DNA of 64,000 nt from Bacteroidales bacterium (GTDB lineage Bacteria; Bacteroidota; Bacteroidia; Bacteroidales; VadinHA17). A program made the translations under genes and the position numbers. This document shows, one piece after another, positions 43,409-62,083 of the stretch. Position 1 is the first letter of the stretch. Every line of letters starts with the position of its first letter. The stretch covers positions 4,308 through 68,307 of the forward strand of contig JAGNKY010000012.1 of NCBI GenBank assembly GCA_017999895.1, in the 5' to 3' direction. The notes beneath the pieces were generated by a model. The model saw only the letters and a program-made list of their open reading frames with translations, was not told the DNA's origin and searched no databases.

Positions 43409-46400
43409 TCAGAAATTAAGTTTAACTCCCAATCGTACCGAAGCTATAATTGGATAAAATCCCTGTTGGAAATTTGTGGCTTCAGGGTCGCCTTCAGGTA
43501 GTTTAGTCAGTGTAAAAAGGTTATTCCCTGTCACATAAACCACAAAGTTTGAGATACCAAGGCTATTCTTAAGTGCACCAGGTCTAATCGTATAACTTAA
43601 ATACACATCTTTCAGACGAAGGTAATTTGCTTTCCTGAAGAACCTGTTTTCGATCATTATCTGGTAACCTCTGTCGGCTTCGCCGCCACCCCAGAACAAT
43701 ATTGGCGAACTTGAACTACCTGCATAGTGTAATGTAGAGTGGTTAGCATCCTGGTTTACAGGTGTCCAGTAATCAAGTTGAGATTTATGGACACGCCAGT
43801 CACCTTTTATAAACTCAACTTCATAAAGCTGGTTATACTGCACATATTTTCCATAATTACCTGAGAAGAGGAAATTGAAATCGAAGTTTTTCCATGTGAA
43901 CCCGCTTCCTAATGAATAAACTATCGGAGGATATGTCAATCCCTTTATCGGATATTTATCGCCCGCCGGAGTGACAGCTCCGTCGGCATCAAAGTCGAGA
44001 AATTTATAATCCCCTACTCTCAACAGGTTTAATGCTATAGGTGATACATTATTATGAATATCATCAATAGTTGTATAATATCCTGTACCTGTAAGCTGGA
44101 CGCCATTTATTTCAGTACCTTCAACACCTGCTTCAGCGAACATCATTGAAGTAAGAGGTTTACCTTCTTGCTTTCTATGTTCGGGTGCATAAGGTTCATC
44201 ATCCTTGAATAATACTCTGTTTTCGTTTGCAGAAAACATACCTCTTATAAAATATGTAAAATTGGGATTGACTGTTTTTCTAAATTCGAGTTCGGCCTCG
44301 ATTCCATGTTTTTTCATTTTTCCAAGATTTAATTCCTTGAAGCTGTTACCTACAAGGAATGTGACACTCTTGGGAGTAAGAAGCATTTTATCGCGGTATT
44401 CATCAAACAAATCAACATTAAGAGTGATCAAATTTTTAAAAAGTCCGATTTCAATGCCAAGATCTCTTTTATGAGCTCTTTCCCATTGTGCCCGCGTATT
44501 GGCTCCGAGGTCCTCACGGATATAACCTCTTGCATCCTTATAATATGAGCTTGTATATAGCCATCTGCTTCTTGCATAGTCGCTTCCTACATAGCCGTCG
44601 GAGTACCGTAATTTTAGTCTGTTTACCCAGGGAACTGCTGCTTTGAAAAAGTTTTCTTCGGATACAACCCATCCAATAGCAATTGACGGGAAGGTACCGA
44701 ATCTGTTAGCAGGAGCGAATCTCTCAGAACCAGTATAGCCTATATTAAATTCGAACAAGTATTTTCTGTCAAAGTCGTAAGTTGCTCTTCCAACCCATGC
44801 TTCATTATAATAAGGGAAGTCTGTCTCCTGATTTTTTTCCTGTCTGTTAAAAAGTCCGAGACCCGATATACTATGCTTTCCGAAAGTCCTGGCATAATTA
44901 ACTGATGCCTCATAATACAGGTCTCTGTAGTAGCCGCTATTAAGGCCGCCCACGTTGATGTCGTACGGTCCGAGTTTGTAGTATTCATTACCTTCACCCG
45001 CTCTGTACCATGGGTTAATCAATCTTCCCGTCGAAGGATTAAACTGCCCCGATTGGGGAATCAAGTCATAATAAAGCTGGTATTCCGGAAAAGTATATGA
45101 AAGTGTAAGTTGTCTGTTGTTATAATATGTACTCAAAGCGACTTTACCATTTACGGAAAGCCCTTCTGTTATCCATCCCAGATCCTGTTTAAACAATAAA
45201 TCTGTAAACAAACGTGAGCCAAGGTCTCTGTTGAAGCTTCCCTGTGTAAGATTTGTATATGGATTGCCTGTATATTCACCAAAAGCCTGTGCCCTCCTCC
45301 AGTTTTTATCCTCAGGATAATCCGGATCAGGAACCATTTCAAGTGCCCATTCAGGGAAGTAAGCCGGGAATCTTGACGGTCCTGTTGAATAAAGGTTACG
45401 CCATGAAGCATTGGACGGAGTATTTTTTGTATTCAGAGAACCGCCTGCATTAAGTGAGATAGTTGTTGTTTTAGTGATACTGAAATCAACATTTATCCTG
45501 TAATTAAACAACTGATTCCAAAACCTCGAGTCCATATAACCCTCTTTCAGACCAATGAAGAATGAACTCTCATGTTGGAATCCAAGATTGAGAAAGTACT
45601 TGGCAAACTCAGTGCCACCTGAGATGTTTAGGCTTGCAACGGCTGTTGGTGAAAATGGATGCGTGCATTCGTCGAACCAGTTAACATTCGGGAATCTCAG
45701 AGAATTAAGAGGAGTTGAAGGATTCTTATATTCCTGTAATTGCCATTCCGGAATAAGTTGCGAGAAATATGTTCCTCCTTCATTCATTAAAGCCACATTA
45801 TACATTGACATGGTTGTATACGAATCAATATGTTCAGGAATTCTTGTTGCCCTCAATAAACCATAAGATAGAGAAAGATCCATTTTTGGTTTACCAAGCG
45901 TGCCGCGTTTTGTAGTTACAAGAATAACGCCATTAGCTCCTTTTGCGCCGAACACAGCTGTTGCAGATGCATCTTTTAGAACGGAAATTGTATTGATTTC
46001 ATTTGGGTCGAGTTGGGAAAAGTCGCGTTCAACACCATCAACAAGAACCAGAGGTGCCGAACCATTCCAGCTTGAAACGCCGCGTACATATATTTCAGCT
46101 GCATTGTTCCCAGGTTCTCCTCTTTGTTGTATTGTAAGTACACCAGAAAGTTTCCCTGCAATTGCATTGGTAATAGTTGCCGCACCTGCTTGCATGAGAG
46201 TGGCATTACTTACCTGAGTTATTGCTCCCACGACACTCTCTTTTTTCTGAACGCCATAACCGACCACCACGACTTCTTCAATTCTTTGCTCTTCTGTTTG
46301 CATCCTGACTGAAACATTTGAACCTGCAGTCACGCTCATTTCCTGAGTTGAATAACCAACGAAAGAAAACTGAAGTACAGCTTCACGTGCCGGCAATACT

Positions 46401-46648
46401 ATCGTAAATTTACCGTTCTCATCGGTTAACCTGCCGGTTGAGGTTCCTTTTACCAGTACTGTCACACCTGCCATGGGCTCACCAGTCGAGGCATCTGTGA
46501 CCGTCCCGGTCACGGTAAATTGTTGTTGTTCTTCAAAGCCGACCGTGATAAAATTCTCATTTGAGATATCGCCGGCTGATACATTCAAATTACCAGTAGT
46601 AAACAAAGTCACTACACAGGTAAAAAATAAAACACACAATTTTGTCAT
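43409..46648 (-). CDS. susC: SusC/RagA-family TonB-dependent outer-membrane transporter (no STN domain)
   Basis: 1079 aa. It has a signal and a carboxypeptidase-regulatory-like domain (VTGTVTDASTGEPMAGVTVLVKGTS). The TonB-linked plug contains VVVGYGVQKK, and the C-terminus reads ...RLGVKLNF. Confidence 0.9.
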   Translation of the reverse strand: MTKLCVLFFTCVVTLFTTGNLNVSAGDISNENFITVGFEEQQQFTVTGTVTDASTGEPMAGVTVLVKGTSTGRLTDENGKFTIVLPAREAVLQFSFVGYSTQEMSVTAGSNVSVRMQTEEQRIEEVVVVGYGVQKKESVVGAITQVSNATLMQAGAATITNAIAGKLSGVLTIQQRGEPGNNAAEIYVRGVSSWNGSAPLVLVDGVERDFSQLDPNEINTISVLKDASATAVFGAKGANGVILVTTKRGTLGKPKMDLSLSYGLLRATRIPEHIDSYTTMSMYNVALMNEGGTYFSQLIPEWQLQEYKNPSTPLNSLRFPNVNWFDECTHPFSPTAVASLNISGGTEFAKYFLNLGFQHESSFFIGLKEGYMDSRFWNQLFNYRINVDFSITKTTTISLNAGGSLNTKNTPSNASWRNLYSTGPSRFPAYFPEWALEMVPDPDYPEDKNWRRAQAFGEYTGNPYTNLTQGSFNRDLGSRLFTDLLFKQDLGWITEGLSVNGKVALSTYYNNRQLTLSYTFPEYQLYYDLIPQSGQFNPSTGRLINPWYRAGEGNEYYKLGPYDINVGGLNSGYYRDLYYEASVNYARTFGKHSISGLGLFNRQEKNQETDFPYYNEAWVGRATYDFDRKYLFEFNIGYTGSERFAPANRFGTFPSIAIGWVVSEENFFKAAVPWVNRLKLRYSDGYVGSDYARSRWLYTSSYYKDARGYIREDLGANTRAQWERAHKRDLGIEIGLFKNLITLNVDLFDEYRDKMLLTPKSVTFLVGNSFKELNLGKMKKHGIEAELEFRKTVNPNFTYFIRGMFSANENRVLFKDDEPYAPEHRKQEGKPLTSMMFAEAGVEGTEINGVQLTGTGYYTTIDDIHNNVSPIALNLLRVGDYKFLDFDADGAVTPAGDKYPIKGLTYPPIVYSLGSGFTWKNFDFNFLFSGNYGKYVQYNQLYEVEFIKGDWRVHKSQLDYWTPVNQDANHSTLHYAGSSSSPILFWGGGEADRGYQIMIENRFFRKANYLRLKDVYLSYTIRPGALKNSLGISNFVVYVTGNNLFTLTKLPEGDPEATNFQQGFYPIIASVRLGVKLNF

Positions 46649-46884
46649 AATTATTGGTTTTAGCTGGTAATTGCCGATAAAGGCAATCTCTGATTTTTTT
46701 TATTCATCTTAGATTGATTAATAATAATGGATTCATTTGCAGGAAATTAAATATCCTGACATTCATGTTGCATCTTTCATAAATCGTTTTAATTAATTGT
46801 TTAAATAATTTTTTTAGGTAGTCGCTTGAAAATATAGCTTTTATGTAATTCTCTTGAAATATTTCGTGTACGTTAACGTACTTT

Positions 46885-46935
46885 GAAATAAAAAACAGAC
46901 TGTATGCTTCCTTTTGTAAGCATAAGCAGTCTGTT
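46885..46935 (-). terminator. Orphan intrinsic-terminator-like hairpin in the SusC upstream region
   Basis: Read on the minus strand: aacagactg-ct-tatgctt acaaaagg aagcata cagtctgtt, followed by ttttatttc. That is a 16-bp stem with a 2-nt bulge, then a U-rich tail. No annotated minus-strand gene ends here. Confidence 0.45.
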
Positions 46936-47428
46936 AAAAATTCCTTTCCGCTTCTTTATTTATATAAGAACGGCTTCATAGGTTCGGTCAGGGTTATCTG
47001 TTCAAAGAGAATATCCTTCGTTCCTGCTGTATTAATCTTTACTGATCAGGTTTGAAAGAAATTCCTTTACAATATTAATAAAAATATTTTAACAAACAAT
47101 AATTTTTTTTAATTTTTTTTAAACTTTTTATAAATATTTGATTTACTTTAATTAATGGGTCTTATTTAAATTTATCTTACTTTAAAATATATGAGTATAC
47201 GACAAAAAACCTTATAAATATGCAAAAACATTCTTTCCAAGTAAAAACTGTTAAAATAATTATCAGGGTTAGGTAAACCGGTCGGCTATGTTCAACAAGA
47301 TTGAAAAAATAATTTTTTAAGCTGTAAGACATATTATATATTATAAGGTATAATTTGATCTATTTTCTTAATTTTATTAAAACATTTTTATCATTTAATA
47401 ATATTTTATAAAAAATTTTATTAAATCC

Positions 47429-47458
47429 TTTGATTTTAAAAAATCATAATTATCTTTG
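47429..47458 (+). promoter_or_regulatory. Candidate Bacteroidota promoter for the ilv-leu leader
   Basis: TTTG (47429..47432) and TAtcTTTG (47451..47458) match the TTTG / TAnnTTTG -33/-7 consensus with an 18-bp spacer. The leader ATG is 20 nt downstream of the -7 box. Confidence 0.4.
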
Positions 47459-47477
47459 CTTTTCAATTGTGATAAAA

Positions 47478-47543
47478 ATGAAGAATTATTTATTACCTGT
47501 TATTTCCCTTATTATCATCCTTCTTCTTAATGGCCGAAGATGA
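47478..47543 (+). CDS. ilv-leu operon leader peptide (21 aa, Leu/Ile/Val-rich)
   Basis: My translation is ATG AAG AAT TAT TTA TTA CCT GTT ATT TCC CTT ATT ATC ATC CTT CTT CTT AAT GGC CGA AGA TGA, giving MKNYLLPVISLIIILLLNGRR. Eleven of the 21 codons are Leu (6), Ile (4) or Val (1). Confidence 0.65.
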   Translation: MKNYLLPVISLIIILLLNGRR

Positions 47544-47591
47544 CCCGGAAATAATTTGTAATAAATTTTGATATTCAGAACTTTCCGGGTC
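47542..47591 (+). promoter_or_regulatory. Antiterminator stem of the leader attenuator
   Basis: gacccggaaa (47542..47551, overlapping the leader stop codon) is the exact reverse complement of tttccgggtc (47582..47591). The second arm overlaps the 5' arm of the terminator, so the two structures are mutually exclusive. Confidence 0.6.
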
Positions 47592-47613
47592 TAATCCGGA
47601 AAGTTCTTTTTTT
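47577..47613 (+). terminator. Attenuator terminator upstream of ilvD
   Basis: A perfect 12-bp stem, agaactttccgg (47577..47588) with ccggaaagttct (47596..47607), has a 7-nt loop and is followed by a T run. It ends 13 nt before the ilvD ATG. Confidence 0.75.
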
Positions 47614-47626
47614 ATATAAAAAGGTT

Positions 47627-49453
47627 ATGAAAATAAAACTCAGAAGTTCTGTCTCCACACAGGGAAGGAATATGGCCGGAGCAAGAAGCCTCTGGCGGGC
47701 AAATGGAATGAAGGAAGAACAATTTGGAAAACCCATATTTGCCGTTGTTAATTCTTTCTCTCAATTAGCTCCAGGTCATGTGCATCTGCAGAAAGCCGGT
47801 GAAATAATAAGAAATCATATCCGAAATCAGGGCTTTTTCGCTGCAGAATTCAATACCATTGCAATTGACGACGGAATTGCAATGGGCCATAATGGGATGC
47901 TCTACTCGCTCCCATCCCGTGAACTAATCGCTGACAGTATCGAATATATGATAAATGCTCACATGGTCGATGCCATGATATGCATCACTAACTGTGACAA
48001 AATCACACCCGGTATGCTTATGGCTGCAATGAGGCTAAATATCCCCACTGTGATTGTATCGGGAGGCCCGATGGAAGCAGGTTCGCATAACAATACATAT
48101 ATAGATCTTATAGATGCAATGGTTGCTGCTGCCGATGACAATGTAAGCGACATGGAACTTCTTCAGATTGAAAAATCTGCCTGTCCTACCTGCGGCTCAT
48201 GCTCAGGGATGTTTACTGCAAACTCCATGAACTGCCTCTCTGAAGCAATCGGTCTTGCTCTCCCTGGGAACGGAACAGTGCTCGCTACTCATAAAAACAG
48301 ACACTTGCTTTTTGAAAAAGCCGCTGATACAATCGTAAAAAATACAGTAAAATATTATTACGATGGAGACGAATCGGTATTACCACGTTCAATAGCAACA
48401 AAAGAAGCGTTTATGAACGCTATGGCTCTCGATATTGCAATGGGCGGGTCAACAAACACGGTATTGCACCTTCTCGCAATAGCTCGCGAAGCAGAAGTTG
48501 ATTTTACCATGAACGACATTGACGCACTTTCGCGCAAAATACCAAATATCTGTAAAGTGGCTCCCAGTTCAAAATACCATGTGCAGGATGTAAACCGTGC
48601 AGGTGGAATTCTTTCGATAATGGGAGAACTTGAAAAAAATAACCTTATAAACTCTGCAGTGAAAAGAGTTGATTACCCTTCTCTGCATGATGCAATATCT
48701 GAATGGGACATTTTGAGTGAAAAAGTGATTCCGCTGGCAATTCAGTTTTATAAAAGTGCTCCTTCAACAGAAAAAAGTTCGGAAGGCGGTTTCAGTAATT
48801 CAATCTATAAAGAATTGGATACAGATCGTCATTCCGGTTGCATCAGAGACATAAGTCACGCGTACACCAGCGATGGAGGCCTTGCAGTTTTGTATGGAAA
48901 TATTGCATCAAAAGGCTGCATTGTAAAAACAGCCGGAGTGGATCAGTCTCTTTTTACATTCAGAGGCCCGGCAATAATTTTTGATTCGCAGGAAGAAGCA
49001 GTCTCTGGCATACTTGGAGGGAAAGTTAAACCAGGCGATGTTGTGGTAATAAGATTCGAAGGGCCAAAAGGAGGACCCGGAATGCAGGAAATGCTTTACC
49101 CTACTTCATACCTCAAATCAAAAGGCCTTGGTACAAAATGTGCGTTGATAACCGACGGACGTTTTTCAGGAGGAACAGCAGGATTATCAATAGGTCATAT
49201 TTCTCCCGAAGCCGCTTCCGGCGGCGAAATCGCTCTTCTGCATCAAGGAGATATTATCGAAATCAATATCCCTGAAAGAACAATAAATGTCTTACTCGAT
49301 AATACCGAAATCGAAAGACGACGAAAACAAGAAGAAGAGAAAGGGGTCGAAGCATGGAAACCGGTTTCGAGAGAAAGAAATATACCTGCTTCGCTAAGAG
49401 CTTATGCAGCACATGTATCCTCAGCCGATATGGGAGCGGTAAGGATAATATAA
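47627..49453 (+). CDS. ilvD: Dihydroxy-acid dehydratase
   Basis: 608 aa. Evidence: [23 protein letters not shown], the [11 protein letters not shown] motif, and a cluster Cys context ([19 protein letters not shown]). Confidence 0.95.
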
Positions 49454-49481
49454 GGAAAAAGGAAAAAGGAAAAAGGAAAAA
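49454..49481. repeat. Tandem heptamer (GGAAAAA)x4
   Basis: Four perfect units read directly, starting right after the ilvD stop. They lie 40 nt upstream of ilvB. Confidence 0.85.
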
Positions 49482-49521
49482 GTCATAACTATAAAAAAGA
49501 AACCAGAAAAAAAAACATTTT

Positions 49522-51252
49522 ATGTCTGACAGTGAAAAAAAATCTTTCGATGGGAACGTGCCCGAACAAATTACAGGAGCGGAAGCAGTTCTAAGAAGCT
49601 TAATAGCTGAAGGCATTAATACTATCTTTGGCTATCCGGGCGGTGCAATTATACCGATATATGACCACCTGCTTAATTTTCAGGACAAAATAAGACATAT
49701 ACTTGCACGTCACGAGCAGGGAGCAGCGCATGCTGCACAAGCTTACGCAATGGTAACAGGGAAACCGGGTGTTTGCTTCACAACTTCGGGGCCTGGAGCT
49801 ACGAACCTTGTAACAGGAATTGCAAATGCTTTCCTCGATTCTGTGCCGGTTATTTTCATCACAGCACAAGTCGTTTCAGGCCTTATCGGTACCGATGCGT
49901 TTCAGGAAACAGATATAATCGGTATTTCAATGCCAATAACCAAATGGAATTGCCAGGTAAAAAGAGCCGAGGATATTCCGTCAGCAATAGCCAGAGCATT
50001 CTATATAGCAACTACTGGCAGACCTGGACCTGTTTTACTCGACATTACAAAAGATGCCCAGACTGAAAAAATGAATTTCAGTTACAAAAAATGTACTTAC
50101 ATTCGAAGCTACCACCCACACAAGCCTTTGAAAACAAAAGAAATTGAATCGGCTGCAATACTTATAAACCATGCCGAAAGACCATTGATTATGGCAGGAC
50201 ATGGAATACTCATCTCTAAAGCTGAAAGAGAGCTAAAAGAGTTTGCCGAAAAAACAGGTATTCCTGTTGCCGTAACACTTCTCGGCCTTTCATGCTTCCC
50301 TACTAATCATAAACTCTATGTCGGGCTGCTCGGGATGCATGGAAATGTAGGCCCAAATAAGCTCACTAACGAGGCAGATTTGATAATAGCTATAGGCATG
50401 CGATTCGACGACCGTGTTACCGGCGATTTGATGAGATATGCACAACAAGCAAAAATAATCCATATCGAAATTGACGAAGCCGAAATAAACAAAAACGTTA
50501 ATGTAGATATTGAAATAAACAATGATGCCGCCGAAGTTCTGAGATATCTTATCCCTATCGTAAATCAAAATTCACATGAGCGATGGCTAAGAGAATTCAG
50601 AGTATGCGACAAAATAGAGTATGACACGGTGATAAAGCCGGAAATTAAACCTAAATCAGGTCCCATTAAAATGGGAGAAGTAGTAAATGCTATTTCAGAA
50701 CTCACACAGGGAAGTTCAATAATTGTTACAGATGTGGGACAAAACCAGATGTCGGTAGCTCGTTATTACAAATTCACAGAACCAAATACATTTGTTACAT
50801 CCGGGGGGATGGGAACAATGGGTTTCGGACTGCCCGCTTCAATAGGAGCAAAGATTGGAAGACCCGAGAAACAGGTAATTGCTTTCCTTGGTGACGGCGG
50901 ATTCCAGATGACAATACAGGAACTTGGCACTATATTACATTATAAAATACCGGTCAAACTAATAATTCTCAATAATTTTTTCCTGGGTATGGTAAGACAG
51001 TGGCAAGATATGTTCTTCAACAAAAGATATGCATCAACCGAACTTGTAAACCCCGATTTTGTTAAAGTTGCCGAAGGATACAATATTCCGGGAAAACGAG
51101 TATCAACAAGAGAAGAACTTATACCGGCAATAAATACAATGCTAAATAGCGAAAGCGCTTATCTGCTCGAAGTAATGGTAGAAAAAGAAGGTACCGTTAT
51201 GCCAATGGTGGAACCTGGCGCTTCAGTATCGGAAGTAAAAATTAAAAAATAA
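49522..51252 (+). CDS. ilvB: Acetolactate synthase, large (catalytic) subunit
   Basis: 576 aa ThDP enzyme. Evidence: GAEAVLRSLIAEGINTIFGYPGGAI, HEQGAAHAA, and the ThDP motif GDGGFQMTIQELGT...NN. Confidence 0.95.
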   Translation: MSDSEKKSFDGNVPEQITGAEAVLRSLIAEGINTIFGYPGGAIIPIYDHLLNFQDKIRHILARHEQGAAHAAQAYAMVTGKPGVCFTTSGPGATNLVTGIANAFLDSVPVIFITAQVVSGLIGTDAFQETDIIGISMPITKWNCQVKRAEDIPSAIARAFYIATTGRPGPVLLDITKDAQTEKMNFSYKKCTYIRSYHPHKPLKTKEIESAAILINHAERPLIMAGHGILISKAERELKEFAEKTGIPVAVTLLGLSCFPTNHKLYVGLLGMHGNVGPNKLTNEADLIIAIGMRFDDRVTGDLMRYAQQAKIIHIEIDEAEINKNVNVDIEINNDAAEVLRYLIPIVNQNSHERWLREFRVCDKIEYDTVIKPEIKPKSGPIKMGEVVNAISELTQGSSIIVTDVGQNQMSVARYYKFTEPNTFVTSGGMGTMGFGLPASIGAKIGRPEKQVIAFLGDGGFQMTIQELGTILHYKIPVKLIILNNFFLGMVRQWQDMFFNKRYASTELVNPDFVKVAEGYNIPGKRVSTREELIPAINTMLNSESAYLLEVMVEKEGTVMPMVEPGASVSEVKIKK

Positions 51253-51818
51253 TGAAAAAAGAATTCACACTTTCAATTTTTACAGAGAATCGAATAGGAA
51301 TTCTCAACCAGATAACGATCATTATGACGCGCAGGCAGATTAATATCGAGAGTGTTACCTCTTCAGAATCTGCAGTAAAAGGAATTCAACTTATAACCCT
51401 TGTAGTCAGAACAACAGACGATATGATAAGAAAAGTCGCACGACAAATAGAAAAAATAATTGATGTAGTAAAAGTCTTCGTTCATAACCCTGAAGAAATA
51501 GTCTATCAGGAAATTGCTCTTTTCAAGGTATCGACAAAATCTCTTCTTACAGGAGACATAATTGACCACCTTGTCAGATCGCATAATATTAGATTTCTTG
51601 ATATTACTTCCGAGTACATGGTCATTGAAAAAACCGGACATAAAAATGAAATAATTCGACTTCTTAACGAACTCGAACCTTTCGGTATCCTGCAATATGC
51701 CAGATCGGGCAGGGTAGCAATCACTAAACAGGTAAAAGAGTTAGATGCTTACCTTAAAGAAATGGATGAAATACTTCATAATGAAAATGAAAAAGAAGAA
51801 TTTGAAATGATTAAATGA
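51252..51818 (+). CDS. ilvN: Acetolactate synthase, small (regulatory) subunit
   Basis: 188 aa. It has an ACT-domain start (FTLSIFTENRIGILNQITIIMTRRQINIESV). Its start overlaps the ilvB stop by 1 nt. Confidence 0.9.
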   Translation: MKKEFTLSIFTENRIGILNQITIIMTRRQINIESVTSSESAVKGIQLITLVVRTTDDMIRKVARQIEKIIDVVKVFVHNPEEIVYQEIALFKVSTKSLLTGDIIDHLVRSHNIRFLDITSEYMVIEKTGHKNEIIRLLNELEPFGILQYARSGRVAITKQVKELDAYLKEMDEILHNENEKEEFEMIK

Positions 51819-51928
51819 CTGATAAAGAATCTCCGGCATTCAATTTCCCATGTTAAAATAAACTTTTTTAATCTATCGGGGTGTTTTGAATCAGACCGGG
51901 TAATGTAAAACCAATAAAACTAATAAAT

Positions 51929-52978
51929 ATGGCAAAAATTGATTTCGGTGGTGTTATCGAAGATGTGGTTACAAGAGAAGAGTTTCCTCTCTCGAAAGCA
52001 CGTAAAGTGCTTAAAAATGAACTTATTGCAGTAATTGGTTATGGCGTTCAAGGCCCTGCACAAGCCCTTAATATGAAAGATAACGGCTTAAATGTAATCG
52101 TAGGTCAGGCGCCTGAATTCAAAAATGACTGGGACAGAGCAGTCTCCGACGGATTTGTTCCTGGAAAAACTCTTTTCCCTATCACCGAAGCTGCTTCCAG
52201 AGGAACAATTATCATGTACCTCGTTTCCGATGCGGCACAGAGATTACTCTGGCCCGAACTGAAAAATTGCCTCAAAAGGGGCGATGCTCTTTATTTCTCA
52301 CATGGCTTTTCAATAACTTACAAGGAGCAGACTGGAGTTATACCTCCTCCTGATATTGATGTTATTCTTGTCGCTCCTAAAGGCTCAGGAACAAGCGTGC
52401 GTCGCAATTTCCTGGCCGGAACAGGAATAAACTCGAGCTACTCTGTTTATCAGGACTATACGGGAAGAGCTACCGATAGAGTGCTGGCCCTCGGAATTGC
52501 AGTAGGCTCGGGTTACCTTTTCCCAACAACTTTCGAAAAAGAAGTATATAGTGACCTTACAGGAGAACGAGGAGTGCTTATGGGAGCACTTGCAGGAATT
52601 ATGGATGCACAATATCAGATCCTAAGAGATAATGGTCACTCTCCTTCAGAAGCATTCAACGAAACAGTGGAAGAACTTACACAAAGTCTAATCCGACTTG
52701 TTGATGAAAAAGGCATGGATTATATGTATGCAAACTGCAGTGCAACTGCACAGCGTGGCGCTCTCGACTGGAGACCAAGATTCAGGGATGCCGTCTTGCC
52801 TGTATTCAAAGAGCTGTATGAAAGTGTGAAAACAGGCAAAGAAACGGAAAGAGTTATACAGGCACTGAGCAATCCTAATTATAAAGACCTTCTCGATGCC
52901 GAACTGAGAGAACTACGGGATTCCGAAATGTGGAGAGCAGGAGCTGCAGTAAGGAAATTAAGACCCGGTAATAAATAA
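51929..52978 (+). CDS. ilvC: Ketol-acid reductoisomerase (class I)
   Basis: 349 aa. Evidence: AVIGYGVQGPAQALNMKDNGLNV, the SHGF motif, and LTGERGVLMG. Confidence 0.95.
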   Translation: MAKIDFGGVIEDVVTREEFPLSKARKVLKNELIAVIGYGVQGPAQALNMKDNGLNVIVGQAPEFKNDWDRAVSDGFVPGKTLFPITEAASRGTIIMYLVSDAAQRLLWPELKNCLKRGDALYFSHGFSITYKEQTGVIPPPDIDVILVAPKGSGTSVRRNFLAGTGINSSYSVYQDYTGRATDRVLALGIAVGSGYLFPTTFEKEVYSDLTGERGVLMGALAGIMDAQYQILRDNGHSPSEAFNETVEELTQSLIRLVDEKGMDYMYANCSATAQRGALDWRPRFRDAVLPVFKELYESVKTGKETERVIQALSNPNYKDLLDAELRELRDSEMWRAGAAVRKLRPGNK

Positions 52979-52990
52979 ATATAAAAGATA

Positions 52991-54484
52991 ATGGAAGAGA
53001 AAATAATTATTTTCGACACCACACTGCGCGATGGTGAACAAGTTCCTGGTTGCCAGCTCAACACCATAGAAAAAATTCAGGTGGCAAAAGCTCTTGAAGA
53101 ACTTGGAGTTGACGTTATCGAAGCCGGCTTCCCTGTTTCAAGCCCGGGTGATTTTAACTCCGTGGTCGAAATATCAAAATCAATATCGGAACCAATTATC
53201 TGTGCACTTACCAGAGCAGTGAAAAAAGACATAGAGGTGGCTGCCGAAGCCCTTCAGTATGCAAAACGCAAAAGAATTCATACTGGAATCGGCGTCTCTC
53301 CTTATCATATCGAATACAAACTTAAAACAACACCCGATGAAATAATCAAAAGAGCATCAGATGCTGTCAGATATGCACGGAAATTTGTTGATGACGTCGA
53401 ATTCTATGCTGAAGATGCAGGAAGAACTGATAACGAATACCTTGCGAAGGTGATCGAGGCAGTAATAGATGCAGGTGCCACTGTAGTAAATATACCGGAT
53501 ACTACAGGATATTGCCTCCCTGTTGAATACGGGGAAAAAATCAAATACCTGAAGGACAATGTACCAAACATAGATAAGGCCATCATTTCCACACACTGCC
53601 ATAACGACCTCGGAATGGCAACTGCAAATACAATCATGGGAATTCTGAACGGGGCACGCCAGGCCGAGGTTACAATAAACGGCGTGGGCGAAAGAGCAGG
53701 CAACACCTCCCTCGAAGAGGTCGTAATGACGTTGAAAAGCCACAAAAATCTAAAATTTGTAACCGGCATCAACACACAGCTCATATACAAAACCAGCCGT
53801 CTCGTCTCAACATTGATGAATATGCCTGTCCAGCCAAACAAAGCAATTGTCGGCCGTAATGCATTCGCCCATTCCTCAGGTATCCACCAGGACGGCGTAC
53901 TGAAGAAAAGAGAAAACTACGAAATTATCAACCCTGTTGAGGTCGGCGTAAGAGAATCATCTATCATCCTCTCCGCACGCAGCGGACGAGCAGCTCTTAA
54001 CCACAGACTCGAACTTCTTGGATACAAATTCAACAAGGAAGAGCTTGACGATATATACTACCGCTTCCTTAAACTCGCCGACAAGAAAAAAATTATAAAC
54101 GATGATGACATTAAGATACTTACCGGAGAGGTGACTCAGGGTGAAAAACCTCTGCGACTCGAGCTCCTGCAAGTGTCATGTGGCAAATCATTAATACCTG
54201 TTGCTACAGTCGGACTCTGGATAAACGGAGAAATTCACACAGCCACTGCAACAGGTAATGGCCCTATAGACGCCGCATTTACTGCTGTACGACAACTTAT
54301 TAATAAAACGGTACATCTCGAAGAATTCCTTATTCAGGCTATTACAAGGGGTAGTGATGATATCGGAAAGGTACATATACAGGTTGAACATCAAGGGAAA
54401 ATATATTACGGATTCTCTGCTAATACTGACATCATTACAGCCTCGGTTGAAGCTTTAATTGACGCAATAGCTAAAATTAAGTAA
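52991..54484 (+). CDS. leuA: 2-isopropylmalate synthase
   Basis: 497 aa. Evidence: [35 protein letters not shown], and a C-terminal LeuA regulatory domain. Confidence 0.9.
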
Positions 54485-54497
54485 ACCATTTTCAATT

Positions 54498-55895
54498 ATG
54501 AGTTCAAAAACTCTTTTTGATAAAATATGGGATGCCCACGTCGTCTATTCAATCGAAGGAGGACCCGACGTCCTCTATATCGATATGCATTACATTCACG
54601 AAGTGACTAGCCCTCAAGCCTTTAACGGACTCAGAAATAGAGGCATAAAAGTATTCCGACCTGAAAGAACCCTTGCAACTGCCGATCATAATATCCCTAC
54701 AAAAGATCAGCACCTGCCAATACGAGATGAAATTTCAAGAAACCAGGTCGAAACTCTCGAGAAAAACTGCAGGGAGTTCGGAATAAAGTTTTTCGGAATG
54801 CAACATCCTAATAATGGAATCGTCCATGTTATTGGTCCAGAACTTGGTTTTACACGACCTGGTATGACGATTGTATGCGGCGACAGCCATACCTCAACTC
54901 ACGGTGCCTTCGGTTCGATTGCTTTCGGAATCGGCACTTCCGAGGTGGAAATGGTACTTGCTTCCCAATGCATACTCCAAAATCGACCACGGGTGATGAG
55001 AATAAGTGTAAATGGTACACTTCCACATGCAACCACTGCCAAAGATATAATAATGTTTATCATCTCGCGCCTTTCTTCCGGCGGAGCTACAGGCTATTTT
55101 ATAGAATATGCCGGACAGGCTATCGAAAGCCTCAGTATGGAAGGTAGAATGACCGTGTGTAATATGAGTATTGAAATGGGAGCCCGCGGGGGCCTTATTG
55201 CACCCGATAACAAAACAATCGATTACGTTAAGAAAAGCTCCAAAATCTCAGGTATTGAAATCACGGAAAATGAAATAAGAAACTGGGAAAATCTTAAATC
55301 GGACAATGGAGCCAGTTTTGACAGGGAAGTGGAATTCGACGCAGGCGAAATAAAACCTATGATAACATTCGGAACAAATCCGGGTATGGCAATAGCTGTT
55401 GATGATGTCATTCCTGAACCTTCCGAAAATAAAAAAGAAGCAACATCATTTATGAAAGCTCTTGAATATATGGGCTTCAAACCAGGCATGAAACTCGAGG
55501 GACATAAAATAGATTATGTTTTCCTCGGTAGTTGTACAAATGGACGCATTGAGGACTTCAGAGCATTTGCTTCGGTTATCAAAGGAAGAAAAAAATCTCC
55601 CGATGTGACTGCATTGATAGTCCCGGGCTCAAAAAGAGTTGAAGCTCAAATTTTTGAAGAAGGCCTTGATAAAATATACAGAGAAGCCGGTTTTGAAATA
55701 CGACAGCCCGGATGCTCATCATGTCTCGCAATGAACGATGATAAAATACCTGCAGGAAAATATTCTGTTTCAACTTCAAACAGAAATTTTGAGGGCAGGC
55801 AGGGTCCCGGCGCCAGAACAATACTTGCAAGCCCTCTTACTGCCGCCGCATGCGCTATAACCGGTGAAATAACCGATCCACGAAATTTTTTATAA
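54498..55895 (+). CDS. leuC: 3-isopropylmalate dehydratase, large subunit
   Basis: 465 aa aconitase-family protein. Evidence: [36 protein letters not shown], and the cluster Cys context [10 protein letters not shown]. Confidence 0.95.
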
Positions 55896-55915
55896 CAATT
55901 TTTAATCAGAAAACA

Positions 55916-56515
55916 ATGCCAGGAGTAAAATTTACAACACTCGAATCAACATGCGTGCCTCTTCCGGTTGAAAACATCGATACAGATCAGATAATTCCTG
56001 CAAGATATCTGAGCGCTACATCCAGAGAAGGTTTCGGGGAAAAGCTATTCTATGACTGGCGCTACGACAAGGATGGGAAACCAGTAACGAGCTTCGTTCT
56101 TAATAACCCTCTTTATTCAGGTTCTATTCTTGTGGCAGGAAGGAACTTCGGGTGCGGCTCAAGTCGTGAACATGCCGTATGGGCATTATACGACTACGGC
56201 TTCAGAGTAGTAATATCGAGTTTTTTTGCCGACATCTTCAAAAACAATGCCCTCAACAACGGACTTCTGCCAATTGTCATTCCAGACGAAGATCTCGAAA
56301 ATCTCTTTATGCTCATCCAGAAAGATCCCGGCATGAAAGTAAAAATCACTCTTGAACATCAACTCCTCGAGATACCAAAAATCGGAAAGGCAATCAGGTT
56401 CGACATAAATCCTTATAAAAAAGAGTGCCTGCTTAAGGGACTCGACGATATTGACTATCTGCTTGGATTAAAAGATAAAATTGAAGAGTTTGAAAGAAAC
56501 CGATTACGAAAATGA
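55916..56515 (+). CDS. leuD: 3-isopropylmalate dehydratase, small subunit
   Basis: 199 aa. Evidence: [13 protein letters not shown] and [13 protein letters not shown]. Confidence 0.95.
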
Positions 56516-58071
56516 AAATAGAAATCATGGATACCACTCTGCGCGATGGGGAGCAAATGCAGGGGGTATCTTATACTCCGTTTGAAAAGCTTCATATTGC
56601 CTCTCTCCTTCTAAAGGATCTGAGGGTTGATCGCATCGAAATTGCATCGGCACGTGTCTCAAAGGGCGAATTCGAAGCTGCCTGTAAAATTGCAGAATGG
56701 GCAGCACAAAACGATATGTTACAGAAAGTGGAAGTGCTCGGCTTTGTTGACGGCGATATTTCACTCAAATGGATAAAAAAAGCCGGATTAAAGGTGGTAA
56801 ACCTCCTCTCTAAAGGCTCATTGAGACATCTCAAAGAGCAACTCCGCAAGACTCCTGAACAGCATGTCGACGAAATTAGACAGGTTATTAAAATAGCCGG
56901 CGAAATGGGTATATCAGTTAATATTTATTTCGAAGACTGGTCAAACGGAATGATACACTCACCCGACTATGTCCATTTTATGATGGAGTCGCTCAAAAAT
57001 GAAAATGTGCTCCGATTCATGCTCCCCGACACCCTTGGGATACTAAACCCTGACCAGACTTACGAGTTTTGTTCGATAATGATAAAAAGATATCCCGGCC
57101 TCCATTTTGATTTCCACCCGCACAACGACTATGATCTTGCAGTTGCAAATGTCTTTTCTGCCCTTAAAGCTGGCGTAAAAGGTGTACATACTACTGTGAA
57201 CGGCCTCGGCGAACGCGCCGGTAATGCTCCTCTTTCAAGCGTCGTTGCAGTTATTAAAGACCAGCTTGGATTTGAAACAAATATTGATGAAGCAGCTATC
57301 ACAAAAGTGAGCCGGGTAGTCGAATCATACAGCGGAATAAGAATTCCTGAGAATAAACCTGTAATCGGTGAAAACGTATTCACGCAAACTTCCGGTATTC
57401 ATGCCGACGGCGACAGCAAGGCAAATCTCTATTTTAATAACCTCCTGCCAGAACGCTTCGGAAGAAAAAGAAAATACGCTCTCGGAAAGCTCTCAGGTAA
57501 AGCAACTATACGAAAGAACCTCGAAGAATTCGGACTAAACCTTCCTCCCGAATCAATCGAACGTGTTACACGACGAGTTATAGAACTTGGCGACAAAAAA
57601 GAAATTGTAACAACTGAAGACCTTCCTTTTATCATTTCAGATGTGCTCGGCGATGATAAAATAAATAATTACAAAGTAAGAATAATAAACTATTCACTTG
57701 CAACTTCACAAGGCATAAGGCCCGTGGCAGGCGTATTTATTGAAATTGAGGGACAGCCTTATGAAGAAACGTCTCTCGGCGACGGCCAGTACGATGCTTT
57801 CATGAAAGCCTTACGAAAAATATATGAACGGATAGGAAAAGAGTTGCCCATACTTACCGATTATAAAGTTTCAATACCTCCCGGCGGCAGAACCGATGCC
57901 CTGGTCGAAACAGTTATTTCATGGAATTACAGAGGGATGGAATTCAGAACAAAAGGACTCGATGCCGATCAGGTTGCATCTGCAATAAAAGCCACGGAAA
58001 AAATGCTTAACATTATCGAAAACCCAGAATCAAATAAAAAATTCATGTCTTCTTTTTCCGACAAAAAATAA
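56512..58071 (+). CDS. Second LeuA-family synthase, citramalate-synthase-like (CimA-like)
   Basis: 519 aa. Evidence: [34 protein letters not shown], and a C-terminal LeuA-dimer/regulatory domain. It is clearly diverged from the leuA at 52991 and overlaps the leuD stop by 4 bp. Confidence 0.7.
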
Positions 58072-58125
58072 TAATAAGGAAAAAATCAATTTCTTAAATA
58101 ATAAATTATCAATAAAAATAAATTC

Positions 58126-59196
58126 ATGAATAAATCATATAATATCGCTGTAATACCTGGCGACGGCACAGGCCCTGAAGTTGTCAGAGAAGGGAAAAAA
58201 GTGATTGATACTGCCGCTTTAAAGTTCGATTTTAAACTTAATTACCATGAATACGATTTCGGAGGCAATCGCTACTTGAAGACAGGAGAATTACTGCCTG
58301 ATTCGGCTATAGAGGAACTAAAAACATACGACGCAATCCTTCTTGGTGCAATTGGTCATCCCGACGTTAAACCAGGTCTTCTCGAAAAGGGAATATTACT
58401 CAGACTTAGATTCGAACTCGACCAGTACATTAACCTTCGTCCGGTAAAACTCTATCCAGGTGTTAATACCCCATTGAAGGACAAAGGACCCGAGCATATT
58501 AATTACGTTGTTGTAAGAGAAAATAGTGGCGACGTATATACCGGTGCCGGTGGCATTATGATGAAAGGTACTCCTGCTGAAGTTGCAGTACAGAATATGA
58601 TTTACACCCGAATGCAGGTTGATCGTTGCCTCAAATATGCATTTGAATATACCTTAAAAAGGAATAAGAAGAAAACCCTTGCGCTTTGCGGTAAAACTAA
58701 TGTCCTTACTTATGTTTTCGACCTGTGGGAAAGAGCTTTTCATGAAATGGGAAATGCAAAATATCCCGATATAAAACGGGAATATTATCATGTTGACGCA
58801 ACATGTATGTGGATGATAAAAAATCCCGAATGGTTCGATGTTATAGTAACCAGCAATATGTTCGGAGATATAATAACCGACCTTGGTGCTATCACACAGG
58901 GAGGCATGGGTATTGCAGCCGGAGGTAACATTAACCCCGAAGGCGTCTCAATGTTTGAACCTATAGGCGGCTCGGCTCCAAAATATGCAGGCAAAAATGT
59001 GATAAACCCTCTGGCTGCCATTGCAAGTGGCGCTATGATGCTCGAACATCTCGGAGAGGAAAAAGCTGCAACCGCAATAGAAAATGCAATAATGTATGTG
59101 ACAGCAAACAAAATAAAAGATCTGGGCGCAGGCAAAATGGGCTATTCTACAACCGAAGTCGGAGATATGGTGGCTGAGAGAGTACAATTGGAATAA
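58126..59196 (+). CDS. leuB: 3-isopropylmalate dehydrogenase
   Basis: 356 aa. Evidence: IAVIPGDGTGPEV, NLRPVK, NMFGDIITDL, and GGSAPKYAGKNVINP. Confidence 0.9.
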   Translation: MNKSYNIAVIPGDGTGPEVVREGKKVIDTAALKFDFKLNYHEYDFGGNRYLKTGELLPDSAIEELKTYDAILLGAIGHPDVKPGLLEKGILLRLRFELDQYINLRPVKLYPGVNTPLKDKGPEHINYVVVRENSGDVYTGAGGIMMKGTPAEVAVQNMIYTRMQVDRCLKYAFEYTLKRNKKKTLALCGKTNVLTYVFDLWERAFHEMGNAKYPDIKREYYHVDATCMWMIKNPEWFDVIVTSNMFGDIITDLGAITQGGMGIAAGGNINPEGVSMFEPIGGSAPKYAGKNVINPLAAIASGAMMLEHLGEEKAATAIENAIMYVTANKIKDLGAGKMGYSTTEVGDMVAERVQLE

Positions 59197-59212
59197 CAAT
59201 TTATTAAGGAAA

Positions 59213-60031
59213 ATGGTTTTACGCCACATTATAAAATTTATTCATTTAATTATCCTTACACCTGCAGTTATATTTCCCTTATCCGGACAGGAAATCTCCA
59301 AACAAACCGGAGAACTTGCAAGATTTACGGTATCTGAAGCAAAACAGGCAGTGGCGGTCGACAAAAGCTGTTTTTACGTCATCAATAACAGTACCATCAC
59401 AAAACACGACAAAAAGAGCGGGCTACTGACAACTAAATGGGATGGATCGGAAGAAGGAATTTCCCATCTTAACAGCGGTGTGGTGATAAGAGGACGATTA
59501 TACTGCGCTTCTTCAAATTATCCTGCTTCACCTATGGCAAGCTCAATAGAAATCTTCGATGCAAAAACTCTCAAACATTTAGGTAACCATAGTTTCGGCA
59601 TCTATGCAGGATCTGCAACATGGATAGATAAATACGACGGATGCTGGTATGTCGGTTTCGCACACTATACGGGCACAGGCTCAAGTGAGGGCAAAGATAC
59701 GCGCTGGACATCTGTCATTAAATTCAATAAAAAATGGCAACAAATTGAAGCATGGATATTTCCTGATAATATAATCGAACTCTTTAAACCAAAAAGTAAT
59801 TCGGGTGCCGCATGGGGATTTGATGGCAGATTATACTGTACCGGACACGACCGTCCGGAAATATACGTCATGGAAATCCCAAACACGGGTTTTACTCTTA
59901 AACATGTAAAAACTCTTACTGTGCCAGTATATGGACAGGGAATTGCCTTCGACCGATCAGTGAAAAATAAGAAGATAATTTATGGCATAGACAGAATTAA
60001 TAACCAGGTGATTTCTTTTGAAATTAAGTGA
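59213..60031 (+). CDS. Secreted hypothetical protein (beta-rich)
   Basis: 272 aa with a signal-like N-terminus (IHLIILTPAVIFPLSG). I recognise no motif. It starts 16 nt after the leuB stop. Confidence 0.45.
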   Translation: MVLRHIIKFIHLIILTPAVIFPLSGQEISKQTGELARFTVSEAKQAVAVDKSCFYVINNSTITKHDKKSGLLTTKWDGSEEGISHLNSGVVIRGRLYCASSNYPASPMASSIEIFDAKTLKHLGNHSFGIYAGSATWIDKYDGCWYVGFAHYTGTGSSEGKDTRWTSVIKFNKKWQQIEAWIFPDNIIELFKPKSNSGAAWGFDGRLYCTGHDRPEIYVMEIPNTGFTLKHVKTLTVPVYGQGIAFDRSVKNKKIIYGIDRINNQVISFEIK

Positions 60032-60277
60032 GGTTTTTTAAACCTAATTAGTTTTAAACAAGTTTTTTCCACGCTTTTTCCAGCGTATAAGGGTTTCCCT
60101 TTTATTAATCCATTTCAAAAACGAAACAATTATTTTTATATATTTGTATCATGGCTTAATTTTTGCTTAAAAGTATTTTATTTTTTAATCGTAACATTTT
60201 TCAAACGGAGTTCTTAAAAATAATTTAAGGTTTATAGTAAACATCCGGTTGAATAAGTAGATTAAAAATAGACGATT

Positions 60278-61660
60278 ATGGAAACTTCTATTAGCAAAAA
60301 AAATTTAAAGATAATTCTGAAGTTGGCTTCGAAATTCTCTGATAAAAACTTAGTCCGAATTATTAATCTGGCTGAAAAAACTCTTTCTGACGATAAACTG
60401 ACAAGTGCTCAAATTGAAGGAATTAAGAAACTTATTCAGGAAAGACACCCTTCTGTTGAACTAATGAGAAAAATCCTTAAAGACCTTTCCAAAAACAGTA
60501 AAGATAAATTGATTGAAAATTTCTTTTTTAATGCCGTAATATATGGCCGGCAAAAGCAAAAAGAATTGAAAAGTAAATTAGGATTCAGACCTCCCTGGTT
60601 TATGGTTATCAGCCCTACCGCAAGATGCAACCTGAACTGCAATGGCTGTTATGCAGGTAGTTATGTAAAAGATGAAGGTCTCTCTTTTGAAATTGTGGAC
60701 AGAGTATTAACCGAAGCAAAAGAACTTAGTATCTATTTTGTTACTATTTCGGGCGGAGAACCATACATGTGGCCTCATTTGTTGAAAATATTCGAAAAAC
60801 ATAATGACATGTATTTTCAGACCTATACAAATGGCACCTTGTTAGATAAGGAAATGGTGGAAAAATTAGCAAAATTAGGAAATGTTGCACCAGCTATATC
60901 AATTGAAGGTCTTGAAAAAGAAACAGATGAAAGAAGAGGGAAAGGTACATTCAATAAGGTGATGCGGGCAATGGATAATCTGAAAAATGCCGGAGTTCTG
61001 TTTGGATTTTCTGCCACACCTACAAAATACACCACTAAAACCTTAATGTCCGATGAATTTATTGATTTAATGATTGAAAAAGGGTGCTCTTTCGGCTGGT
61101 TTTTCCAGTATGTACCTATTGGCAAAAAGCCGGACGTAAGCTTAATGTCAACTCCAGAGCAGAGAAATAAGCTCAGGGACAGAATACATGAGATCAGACG
61201 AACCAAACCTATCTTCATCGGCGACTTCTGGAACGACGCTCCATTTGTGGGTGGTTGTATTTCTGGCGCAAGGCCTGGAGGATATTTCCATATTAATTGT
61301 CATGGAGATATCGAACCTTGCGTATTCCTGCAATTTTCAACAGACAATATTAAAGACAAAAAATTAATCGATGTCATTCAGTCATCATTCTTTAAGGCTT
61401 TACAAGAAGCACAGCCATATTGCAAAAATAAAAACCTTCTTGCACCATGCGCATTAATTGACCATCCTGAGGTTCTAAGAGATATCGTTAAGAGATATAA
61501 CGCTAAACCATCATATAACGGAAGCGACGAGGTTATTACTAATCCGGAAATATGCAAATTCCTCGACAAATATTCCAGAGAATTCATAAATTTAACCGAT
61601 CCTGTGTGGGAAAAGGAATATGATCCTTCTAAACATAAACACTGGAAGGAATTCGCTTAG
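60278..61660 (+). CDS. Radical SAM enzyme with an N-terminal helical extension and a C-terminal Cys-rich (SPASM/twitch-like) region
   Basis: 460 aa. The CxxxCxxC motif is ARCNLNCNGCYAG, with a SAM-binding GGEP (TISGGEPYMW). Further cysteines occur in GGCISG...HINCHGDIEPCVF...PYC...APCA. Confidence 0.8.
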   Translation: METSISKKNLKIILKLASKFSDKNLVRIINLAEKTLSDDKLTSAQIEGIKKLIQERHPSVELMRKILKDLSKNSKDKLIENFFFNAVIYGRQKQKELKSKLGFRPPWFMVISPTARCNLNCNGCYAGSYVKDEGLSFEIVDRVLTEAKELSIYFVTISGGEPYMWPHLLKIFEKHNDMYFQTYTNGTLLDKEMVEKLAKLGNVAPAISIEGLEKETDERRGKGTFNKVMRAMDNLKNAGVLFGFSATPTKYTTKTLMSDEFIDLMIEKGCSFGWFFQYVPIGKKPDVSLMSTPEQRNKLRDRIHEIRRTKPIFIGDFWNDAPFVGGCISGARPGGYFHINCHGDIEPCVFLQFSTDNIKDKKLIDVIQSSFFKALQEAQPYCKNKNLLAPCALIDHPEVLRDIVKRYNAKPSYNGSDEVITNPEICKFLDKYSREFINLTDPVWEKEYDPSKHKHWKEFA

Positions 61661-61723
61661 ACTTTTGTGGAATTTTTAAATAATCGAACATAATTGACCA
61701 ACTTTAAGATATAGGGCTTTAGA

Positions 61724-62083
61724 ATGAAAATAGATATTATCGAGGAAAATGGAATCAAAATTGCAATATTGAGATCTTCAGATGTTGTGCTACGTGAAAC
61801 ACAGGATGTTCTGGATTTAATGGCGAATGCAATATATATGGACTCCAAAAAGATTATTATAGAAAAGGATCAGATAATACCCGAGTTCTTTGACCTTAAG
61901 ACTGGAATAGCCGGCGAAATACTACAGAAATTCTCTAACTATGATGTTCAACTTGCTATCATCGGTGACTTTTCGAAATACCCGAGCAAGAGTTTTAGAG
62001 ATTTTATATTCGAGAGTAATAAATATGGTCGAATCAATTTCGTAAACACATTCGAAGAAGCTAAAGAAAAACTAAGCAGATAA
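61724..62083 (+). CDS. DUF4180-like protein
   Basis: 119 aa. DFFDLKTGIAGEILQKFSNYDVQLAIIGDFSKY...FRDFIFESNKYGRINFV matches my memory of the DUF4180 family. No function is known. Confidence 0.65.
   Translation: MKIDIIEENGIKIAILRSSDVVLRETQDVLDLMANAIYMDSKKIIIEKDQIIPEFFDLKTGIAGEILQKFSNYDVQLAIIGDFSKYPSKSFRDFIFESNKYGRINFVNTFEEAKEKLSR

Follow-up and report, generated by a model that had tools for sequence, protein, structure and literature searches.

The Escherichia coli leaders ilvL (upstream of ilvGMEDA), ivbL (upstream of ilvBN) and leuL represent classical multivalent attenuation of branched-chain amino acid (BCAA) genes. A comparable candidate lies in a 64,000-nucleotide (nt) stretch of DNA from a Bacteroidales bacterium (assembly GCA_017999895.1, contig JAGNKY010000012.1), which is termed the window throughout and whose own coordinates are used. 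The element in question occupies positions 47429-47626 of the forward (+) strand, directly in front of the nine-gene operon ilvDBNC-leuACD-cimA-leuB. Judged from its sequence, it is very probably a ribosome-mediated (leader-peptide) transcription attenuator, by which charged Leu-, Ile- and, more weakly, Val-tRNA would control this operon.

Like the E. coli leaders, the Bacteroidales element combines a short open reading frame (ORF) harbouring runs of Leu/Ile/Val codons with overlapping 1:2, 2:3 and 3:4 hairpins and an intrinsic terminator before the first structural gene, and termination would likewise ensue once a ribosome is at the stop codon. In contrast to the E. coli leaders, it features a Bacteroidota-type promoter, no Shine-Dalgarno sequence, a very short predicted 5' untranslated region (UTR), a stop codon within the antiterminator arm and one leader for a fused ilv, leu and cimA operon; sequence or covariance-model similarity is lacking. 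The element would work like ilvL, ivbL and leuL, but it is no sequence member of any curated family. Rather, it belongs to an uncurated Bacteroidota ilv/leu leader family already noted in the literature.

Outside the Proteobacteria, the leucine-rich attenuator peptide of Staphylococcus aureus (PMC5794164) and the three-hairpin attenuator of Corynebacterium glutamicum ilvBNC (PMC11857589) are experimentally supported. Both share with the window a BCAA-rich leader peptide and a terminator/antiterminator pair before an ilv or ilv-leu operon, yet they belong to other phyla and show no sequence relationship, and S. aureus has added CodY control. Another leader-type cis-regulatory RNA before an amino acid biosynthesis operon, this one from the Bacteroidetes, is Bacteroid-trp (RF01692; Weinberg et al. 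2010, PMC2864571), which differs from the window element in concerning Trp and not BCAAs.

The closest described system is found in Flavobacterium psychrophilum, where the transcript-mapped 5' region of ilvE-ilvD-ilvB-ilvH is annotated as a leader peptide attenuation element (Guerin et al. 2021, PMC9723704, supplement D9, Table S7). The same supplement also contains a hisG leader and terms Bacteroid-trp a tryptophan peptide leader. The ilvE leader resembles the window in phylum and pathway: it comprises Ile-rich mini-ORFs, MRKFNIIPSIIIAIVIITTAKGML, and the printed sequence encodes MTTNTIIIISIIIRSFE too. These mini-ORFs end in GAG TGA, the TGA lies inside a GAGTGAG...AGGCT arm, and AAGCCTTTCTCA...TGAGAAAGGCTTTTTTTT follows (the motif is also given as AAGCCTTTCTCA...GAGAAAGGCTTTTTT), which is the Bacteroidales consensus motif. 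The F. psychrophilum region differs from the window in its Ile-only leaders, in the three tandem units within 437 nt and in an operon that begins with ilvE and includes no leu genes. In the lineage of the window, the helix has changed to CCGGGAA / TTCCGG and a single unit is present.

A transcriptome paper on Bacteroides thetaiotaomicron treats leader-like small ORFs in general terms alone, and ilvD is absent from the supplements covered. The initial annotation of the window had presented a clean leader-peptide attenuator in Bacteroidota as a novelty; this was overstated, since Bacteroid-trp and, in the supplement cited above, the F. psychrophilum ilvE and hisG leaders had already been proposed. 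As the mechanism is textbook knowledge and such leaders have been proposed for the phylum, the find changes no concepts. Ilv attenuators in Bacteroidetes/Chlorobi were reportedly also predicted by Vitreschak et al. in 2004 (FEMS Microbiol Lett) and Lopatovskaya et al. in 2010 (cited in PMC4833913).

Searches of curated RNA families are in line with this placement. The whole window contains no match to Rfam families at their gathering thresholds, and within 46600-47800 neither Bacteroid-trp nor the T-box model yields a hit at E values up to 10. Among the matches listed, Phe_leader is the sole Rfam leader family, scoring 20.2 bits against a threshold of 55. Sub-threshold memberships of the window and a Bacteroides relative were rejected, namely PyrR (31 bits, driven by the terminator), Phe_leader (20 bits) and BTnc201 (23 bits).

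Layout of the leader region

The leader comprises the following elements, given with the basis of each call.

47478..47543, + strand: leader ORF of 21 codons plus TGA, peptide MKNYLLPVISLIIILLLNGRR (read from the sequence)
47508..47528, + strand: regulatory run LIIILLL, codons 11-17, CTT ATT ATC ATC CTT CTT CTT (codon listing)
47488..47507, + strand: region 1, 5' arm of the anti-antiterminator (1:2) hairpin, within leader codons 4-10 (minimum-energy fold)
47542..47551, + strand: region 2a, antiterminator 5' arm gacccggaaa, overlapping the stop codon (sequence, duplex energies, constrained folds)
47547..47566, + strand: region 2b, 3' arm of the 1:2 hairpin, then TTTT (minimum-energy fold)
47577..47591, + strand: region 3, terminator 5' arm (47577-47590), containing the antiterminator 3' arm (47582-47591) (sequence, covariation with both partners)
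47594..47613, + strand: region 4, terminator 3' arm (47594-47607) and T run (47608-47613) (fold)

The leader ORF starts with ATG at 47478 and stops with TGA at 47541-47543. Eleven of its 21 codons specify BCAAs (six Leu, four Ile, one Val), seven of them in an unbroken series. This ORF, its composition and the LIIILLL run had been annotated before, and reading the sequence from 47200 to 47760 confirms them. A 37-codon leader beginning at an in-frame TTG (47430) was provisionally rejected, because this TTG lies upstream of the -7 promoter box described below.

The antiterminator (2:3) is a perfect 10-bp helix between gacccggaaa at the stop codon and its exact complement, tttccgggtc (47582-47591), in the terminator 5' arm. 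The terminator (3:4) stem comprises 12 perfect base pairs (47577-47588 with 47596-47607), or 14 if the closing U-A and G-U pairs are counted; it is followed by a T6 run (47608-47613) and, after a further 13 nt, by the ilvD ATG (47627). Both helices, the T run and the distance to ilvD had been described correctly. The initial annotation overlooked, however, an upstream 1:2 hairpin (47488-47507 with 47547-47566). In the minimum-energy fold it forms an AU-rich stem of 18 bp with a 2x2 internal loop, and its 3' arm shares the final five bases of the antiterminator arm. The full classical three-hairpin design (1:2, 2:3 and 3:4) is present in the window.

The terminator has an energy of -19.4 kcal/mol, the antiterminator of -14.9 kcal/mol (-17.8 with its inner hairpin) and the 1:2 hairpin of -12.9 kcal/mol (-19.5 with its inner hairpins). 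The comparison of folding energies that had been suggested along with the annotation was run and supports the layout. The whole leader folds with -42.2 kcal/mol, compared to -23.3 +/- 3.3 in shuffled sequences (z -5.8, 0/200), the duplex of arms 2 and 3 reaches -18.5 vs -7.6 kcal/mol (z -4.1, 0/200), and the 1:2 duplex -16.8 vs -9.0 kcal/mol (z -3.3). In a scan of 47400-62500, the leader terminator is by far the strongest terminator-like hairpin.

Predicted course of attenuation

Transcription would start a few bases 3' of the promoter box TATCTTTG, and the 21-codon leader would be translated at once from a short, A-rich 5' UTR lacking a Shine-Dalgarno sequence. If BCAAs are plentiful, the ribosome would reach the TGA (47541-47543) and cover the arm at 47542-47551. 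With this arm covered, 47577-47590 would pair with 47594-47607, and the polymerase would terminate within the T run, which ends 13 nt short of ilvD. If Leu or Ile is scarce, the ribosome would stall in codons 11-17, possibly also at codons 5, 6, 8 and 9, thus blocking region 1 and leaving the arm at 47542-47551 free. The free arm would then pair with 47582-47591 as soon as this segment is transcribed, no terminator would form and the operon would be transcribed. Without translation, region 1 would pair with 47547-47566, a fold that would favour termination.

Conservation in the Bacteroidota

To find relatives of the element, the 330 nt upstream of each ilvD were searched for the best ORF of 8-45 codons rich in Leu, Ile and Val, and for a perfect or G-U-containing stem with a T run, the terminator lying at most 70 nt after the mini-ORF. 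The best IlvD relatives in genomes and metagenomes stem from metagenome-assembled genomes of Bacteroidales and Rikenellaceae and are at most 73% identical, and a search for the exact IlvD protein returned no entry; therefore, a fine-scale comparison is not possible. Of the 80 genome loci, 36 have a mini-ORF followed by a terminator right before ilvD, as do 45 of the 77 metagenome loci; these positives apparently all belong to the Bacteroidota. The 36 positive genome loci (hereafter the family) all bear a Bacteroidota label, including Bacteroides, Phocaeicola, Alistipes, Odoribacter, Rikenellaceae, Prolixibacteraceae, Paludibacter and Azobacteroides, while the metagenome contigs carry no organism names. 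None of the 19 ilvD loci from Desulfobulbaceae, Spirochaetes, Proteobacteria, Fibrobacter and Acidobacteria shows the element, despite a comparable similarity of their IlvD proteins (62-68% identity). A blind scan of 3.4 Mb on both strands with the same criteria returned 81 hits, of which 71 precede ilvD, four precede leuA-first operons and six lie elsewhere. The comparison of ilvD orthologues proposed with the initial annotation thus reveals conserved BCAA-rich mini-ORFs and, as detailed below, covarying stems.

The leader peptides vary in sequence from lineage to lineage and keep their composition; in the nearest relatives, L002 and L005, the start codon is GTG. Across the relatives, 55% of the leader residues are Leu, Ile or Val, compared to 27% expected from base composition, and Phe accounts for 1.6% vs 6.6% expected; Met, Ala and Trp are low too. 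This composition fits a sensor of branched-chain tRNA charging, unlike a membrane helix, and the avoidance of Phe argues against a membrane peptide.

A chance ORF next to an ordinary terminator in AT-rich intergenic DNA is refuted by the comparative data and retains next to no probability. Such DNA readily yields short ORFs rich in Ile, Leu, Phe, Asn and Lys, and the strict promoter pattern considered below is not rarer than chance (1 match vs 2.9 expected). Yet in dinucleotide shuffles of such upstream regions, a mini-ORF with at least 9 Leu/Ile/Val residues in 10 arises with a chance of 0.06%, and control ORFs on the reverse complement mostly score 3-6, with a maximum of 8. Moreover, the upstream neighbour is a divergent gene for a SusC-like TonB-dependent receptor (43409-46648, minus strand), and hence the hairpin terminates no upstream gene. 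Finally, the element is conserved, with covariation.

Alternative pairing is conserved as well. In 32 of the 36 family loci, the segment around the stop codon pairs with the terminator 5' arm of its own locus better than dinucleotide shuffles do (median z -4.1). In 25 of 36 loci, the stop codon overlaps or adjoins the antiterminator arm, and the leader stop is TGA in 25 of 36. The sequence of the helix differs by lineage: most have GTGAGAAAGG / CCTTTCTCAC, some have GAGAGTGG / CCATTCTC, and the group of the window has CCCGGAAA / TTTCCGGG. In alignment A1, 83.8% of the antiterminator cells are paired, with 28 double-change cells vs 9.2 in shuffles (0/500), and pairing falls to 46-57% when the register is slid. 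The terminator in the same alignment is 91.9% paired, with 36 double-change cells vs 10.1 in shuffles (0/500).

In the subgroup of the window (10 sequences), the base after TGA (C/U) tracks a base in the terminator loop (G/A), a pairing constrained only by the antiterminator. U-A occurs five times, U-G once and C-G three times; the window adds a further C-G when its row, which MAFFT had displaced by one column, is returned to its true register. A covariance model (R1) built from 33 relatives, with the window left out, finds its top hit in the window at 47541-47615 (26.2 bits, E ~0.02). A second R1 hit at 26748-26868 on the minus strand (14.7 bits) lies within a 413-amino acid (aa) coding ORF and was discarded as a chance match.

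Taken at its broadest, the comparison raises an even chance that these loci form an uncurated, phylum-wide family of ilv/leu attenuators in Bacteroidia and Flavobacteriia, characterized by a UGA in the antiterminator arm, an ORF about 10-40 nt from the predicted 5' end and no Shine-Dalgarno sequence. If the family functions as predicted, the Bacteroidota must couple RNA polymerase closely to the first ribosome, and both this coupling and a very rapid, Shine-Dalgarno-independent initiation would be directly testable in the phylum with a natural reporter. The family is well delimited, counts more than 80 examples and is missing from Rfam; adding it could improve the annotation of Bacteroidales, where such leaders go uncalled.

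Folding with ribosome masks and the nature of the switch

The switch logic put forward in the initial annotation, according to which a ribosome at the stop codon masks the arm and a stalled ribosome frees it, is supported by the geometry of the window, by folding and by more than 80 related loci. In the folding analysis the ribosome was mimicked by hard constraints with a 33-nt footprint, footprint sizes being assumed from established knowledge. Without a ribosome, the full-length leader folds into the 1:2 hairpin and the terminator. A mask at the stop codon yields 14/14 terminator pairs and 0/10 antiterminator pairs, and a mask on codons 11-14 yields 10/10 antiterminator pairs and 0/14 terminator pairs. 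The last regulatory codon begins 16 nt 5' of the antiterminator arm. In the nascent RNA of the window, with arm 4 still to be transcribed, a stall at codon 11 or 17 lets the antiterminator form, and a ribosome at the stop codon does not. Across the family, a stalled ribosome on the nascent RNA leaves at least 50% of the terminator arm sequestered for most Leu/Ile/Val positions in 36/36 loci, compared to just 7/36 loci with the ribosome at the stop codon.

Several observations weigh against attenuation by a stalling ribosome. For stalls at codon 5 or 17, the equilibrium fold of the window keeps the terminator, and in 28 of the 36 relatives the terminator stays the minimum-energy fold of the full-length RNA under a stall mask. 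Folding of the nascent RNA without a ribosome indicates that the antiterminator can precede the win of the 1:2 hairpin. The window and most of its subgroup have a 1:2 hairpin more stable than shuffles, but overall this is true of just 11 of the 36 loci. The covariation within the subgroup is on its own not significant (one pair, 3 vs 1.4 double-change cells, reached by 58/500 shuffles), and the score of the window with model R1 is modest. Lastly, the leader contains a single Val codon despite valine being a product of the operon.

A thermodynamic switch was dropped, since the terminator wins at equilibrium in 28/36 loci under the stall mask. Because this holds for most relatives, the modelled switch decision must be kinetic, as in classical systems.

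The same conditional terminator might be governed by another sensor, such as a protein, a T-box-like uncharged tRNA, a small molecule or Rho, with the mini-ORF being incidental. Such a sensor would fit the equilibrium preference for the terminator in most relatives even under the stall mask, and the function assigned to the leader is deduced from DNA sequence. Furthermore, arm 2 of some relatives (e.g., L010 and L088) reads GGGTGGTAC, which we take to resemble the T-box core. This alternative is nonetheless improbable. Neither the window nor a Bacteroides relative reaches the threshold of any T-box, riboswitch or protein-binding RNA family. The ORF varies in sequence but retains its Leu/Ile/Val bias and its avoidance of Phe; the stop codon lies in or next to the antiterminator arm in 25/36 loci, and the promoter box holds the ORF near the 5' end. 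A ribosome-free switch needs neither the bias of the ORF nor the linkage to the stop codon nor the closeness to the promoter. An antiterminator arm reading AGGGTGGTAC occurs in a few relatives (L010, 9884-9900, and L088); its T-box resemblance is probably a coincidence, because both loci also carry a normal Leu/Ile/Val-rich leader ORF.

Promoter, translation start and operon

The leader is flanked by a promoter-like pair of boxes, in keeping with the Bacteroidetes promoter consensus, and by the operon it would control.

47429..47432, + strand: -33-like promoter box TTTG (read from the sequence)
47451..47458, + strand: -7-like promoter box TATCTTTG, 19 nt 5' of the leader ATG (read from the sequence)
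47627..59196, + strand: controlled operon ilvD, ilvB, ilvN, ilvC, leuA, leuC, leuD, cimA-like, leuB (NCBIfam)

The pair TTTG / TAtcTTTG is present as annotated earlier, with an 18-nt spacer that recurs in the nearest relatives L002-L005. Based on the -7-like box, from which we infer the start site, the 5' UTR would span roughly 13-15 nt. A TANNTTTG box lies within 90 nt 5' of the leader start in 32/36 family loci, mostly 16-43 nt away, and in many of these loci TTTG is found 18-20 nt further 5'. A search of both strands of the 64 kb for the strict pattern TTTG-N17-21-TANNTTTG gives a single match, which is the leader promoter, vs about 2.9 matches expected by chance. With one strict match for about 41 genes in the window, most promoters of the organism must deviate from the strict bipartite form.

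Between 43263 and 49623, the box before the leader is the sole TANNTTTG match on the + strand, and none is found between 47458 and ilvD. The hairpin is separated from the ilvD ATG by 19 nt. Given this short gap and the lack of a further -7 box, the operon can only be expressed by read-through of the hairpin.

These features also bear on the idea that the mini-ORF and the terminator constitute a small gene in their own right, coding for a hydrophobic membrane peptide, and that ilvD is expressed separately. The peptide is indeed short and hydrophobic, like many small membrane proteins. However, just 19 nt devoid of a -7 box lie between the terminator and the ilvD ATG. Composition alone is conserved, and the depletion of Phe, Met, Ala and Trp is unlike that of a generic transmembrane helix. 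In addition, 75 of the 81 hits in 3.4 Mb track ilvD-first or leuA-first operons, and the arm complementary to the terminator would be left without a role. A separate peptide gene is accordingly very unlikely, even more so than a sensor other than the ribosome.

The initial annotation had also noted the lack of obvious Shine-Dalgarno signals and asked how the leader might be translated. The organism is indeed largely devoid of such motifs, as just 1 of 41 window genes has one, and the regions upstream of its genes are A-rich and G-poor. The context of the leader, gtgataaaaATG, is A-rich too. As genes across the window share these properties with the leader, it poses no special translation problem, and the puzzle is not particular to it. 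The notable point is the closeness of the ORF to the predicted 5' end. The leader provides a natural test bed for transcription-translation coupling in a phylum that starts translation without Shine-Dalgarno pairing.

The operon annotated downstream is upheld by NCBIfam gene calls: nine co-directional genes with intergenic gaps of -4 to 110 nt, in an order common to the nearest relatives. The cimA-like gene codes for a citramalate-synthase-like LeuA paralogue, whose NCBIfam score of 677 bits is below the curated equivalog cut-off of 950. No strong terminator was found inside the operon in the scan of 47400-62500. An attenuator at this position would explain the control of an operon that also carries the citramalate route to isoleucine.

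Further observations on related loci and neighbouring sequences

Under the pipeline criteria, neither Prevotellaceae (L059, L066, L070-L072, L075) nor Muribaculaceae (L036, L057, L063) have a Leu/Ile/Val-rich leader and terminator before ilvD, a pattern that may reflect loss, another regulator or a different operon start. In Ancylomarina, Labilibaculum and a Prolixibacteraceae genome (L029, L035, L007), a second terminator is located immediately 5' of the ilvD leader. In L029 (9583-9716 and 9740-9878) an extra Leu/Ile/Val-rich mini-ORF precedes the second terminator, yielding two tandem attenuators, an arrangement that echoes the tandem units in the ilvE 5' region of F. psychrophilum.

Operons that start with leuA, or separate leu operons, carry their own Leu/Ile/Val-rich leader and terminator before leuA. 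The blind scan yielded the following leuA leaders.

L015, 3495-3629: leuA leader
L052, 3284-3413: leuA leader
L053, 3362-3490: leuA leader
L029, 16059-16194: leuA leader

Within the operon of the window, the ilvN-ilvC spacer (51819-51928) is the longest (110 nt) and contains no terminator-like or promoter-box match. A 272-aa ORF (59213-60031) begins 16 nt 3' of leuB; its N terminus is signal-peptide-like, it matches no Pfam or NCBIfam family, and no homologue was found in the 80 genome loci. The ORF may ride on the operon transcript, and the next + strand -7 box after it is located at 60139, before a radical-SAM/SPASM gene. The ilvD-ilvB spacer starts with four exact tandem copies of GGAAAAA (49454-49481), followed by more A-rich sequence. 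These repeats could be an A-rich translation-initiation region for ilvB, or a mere simple repeat.

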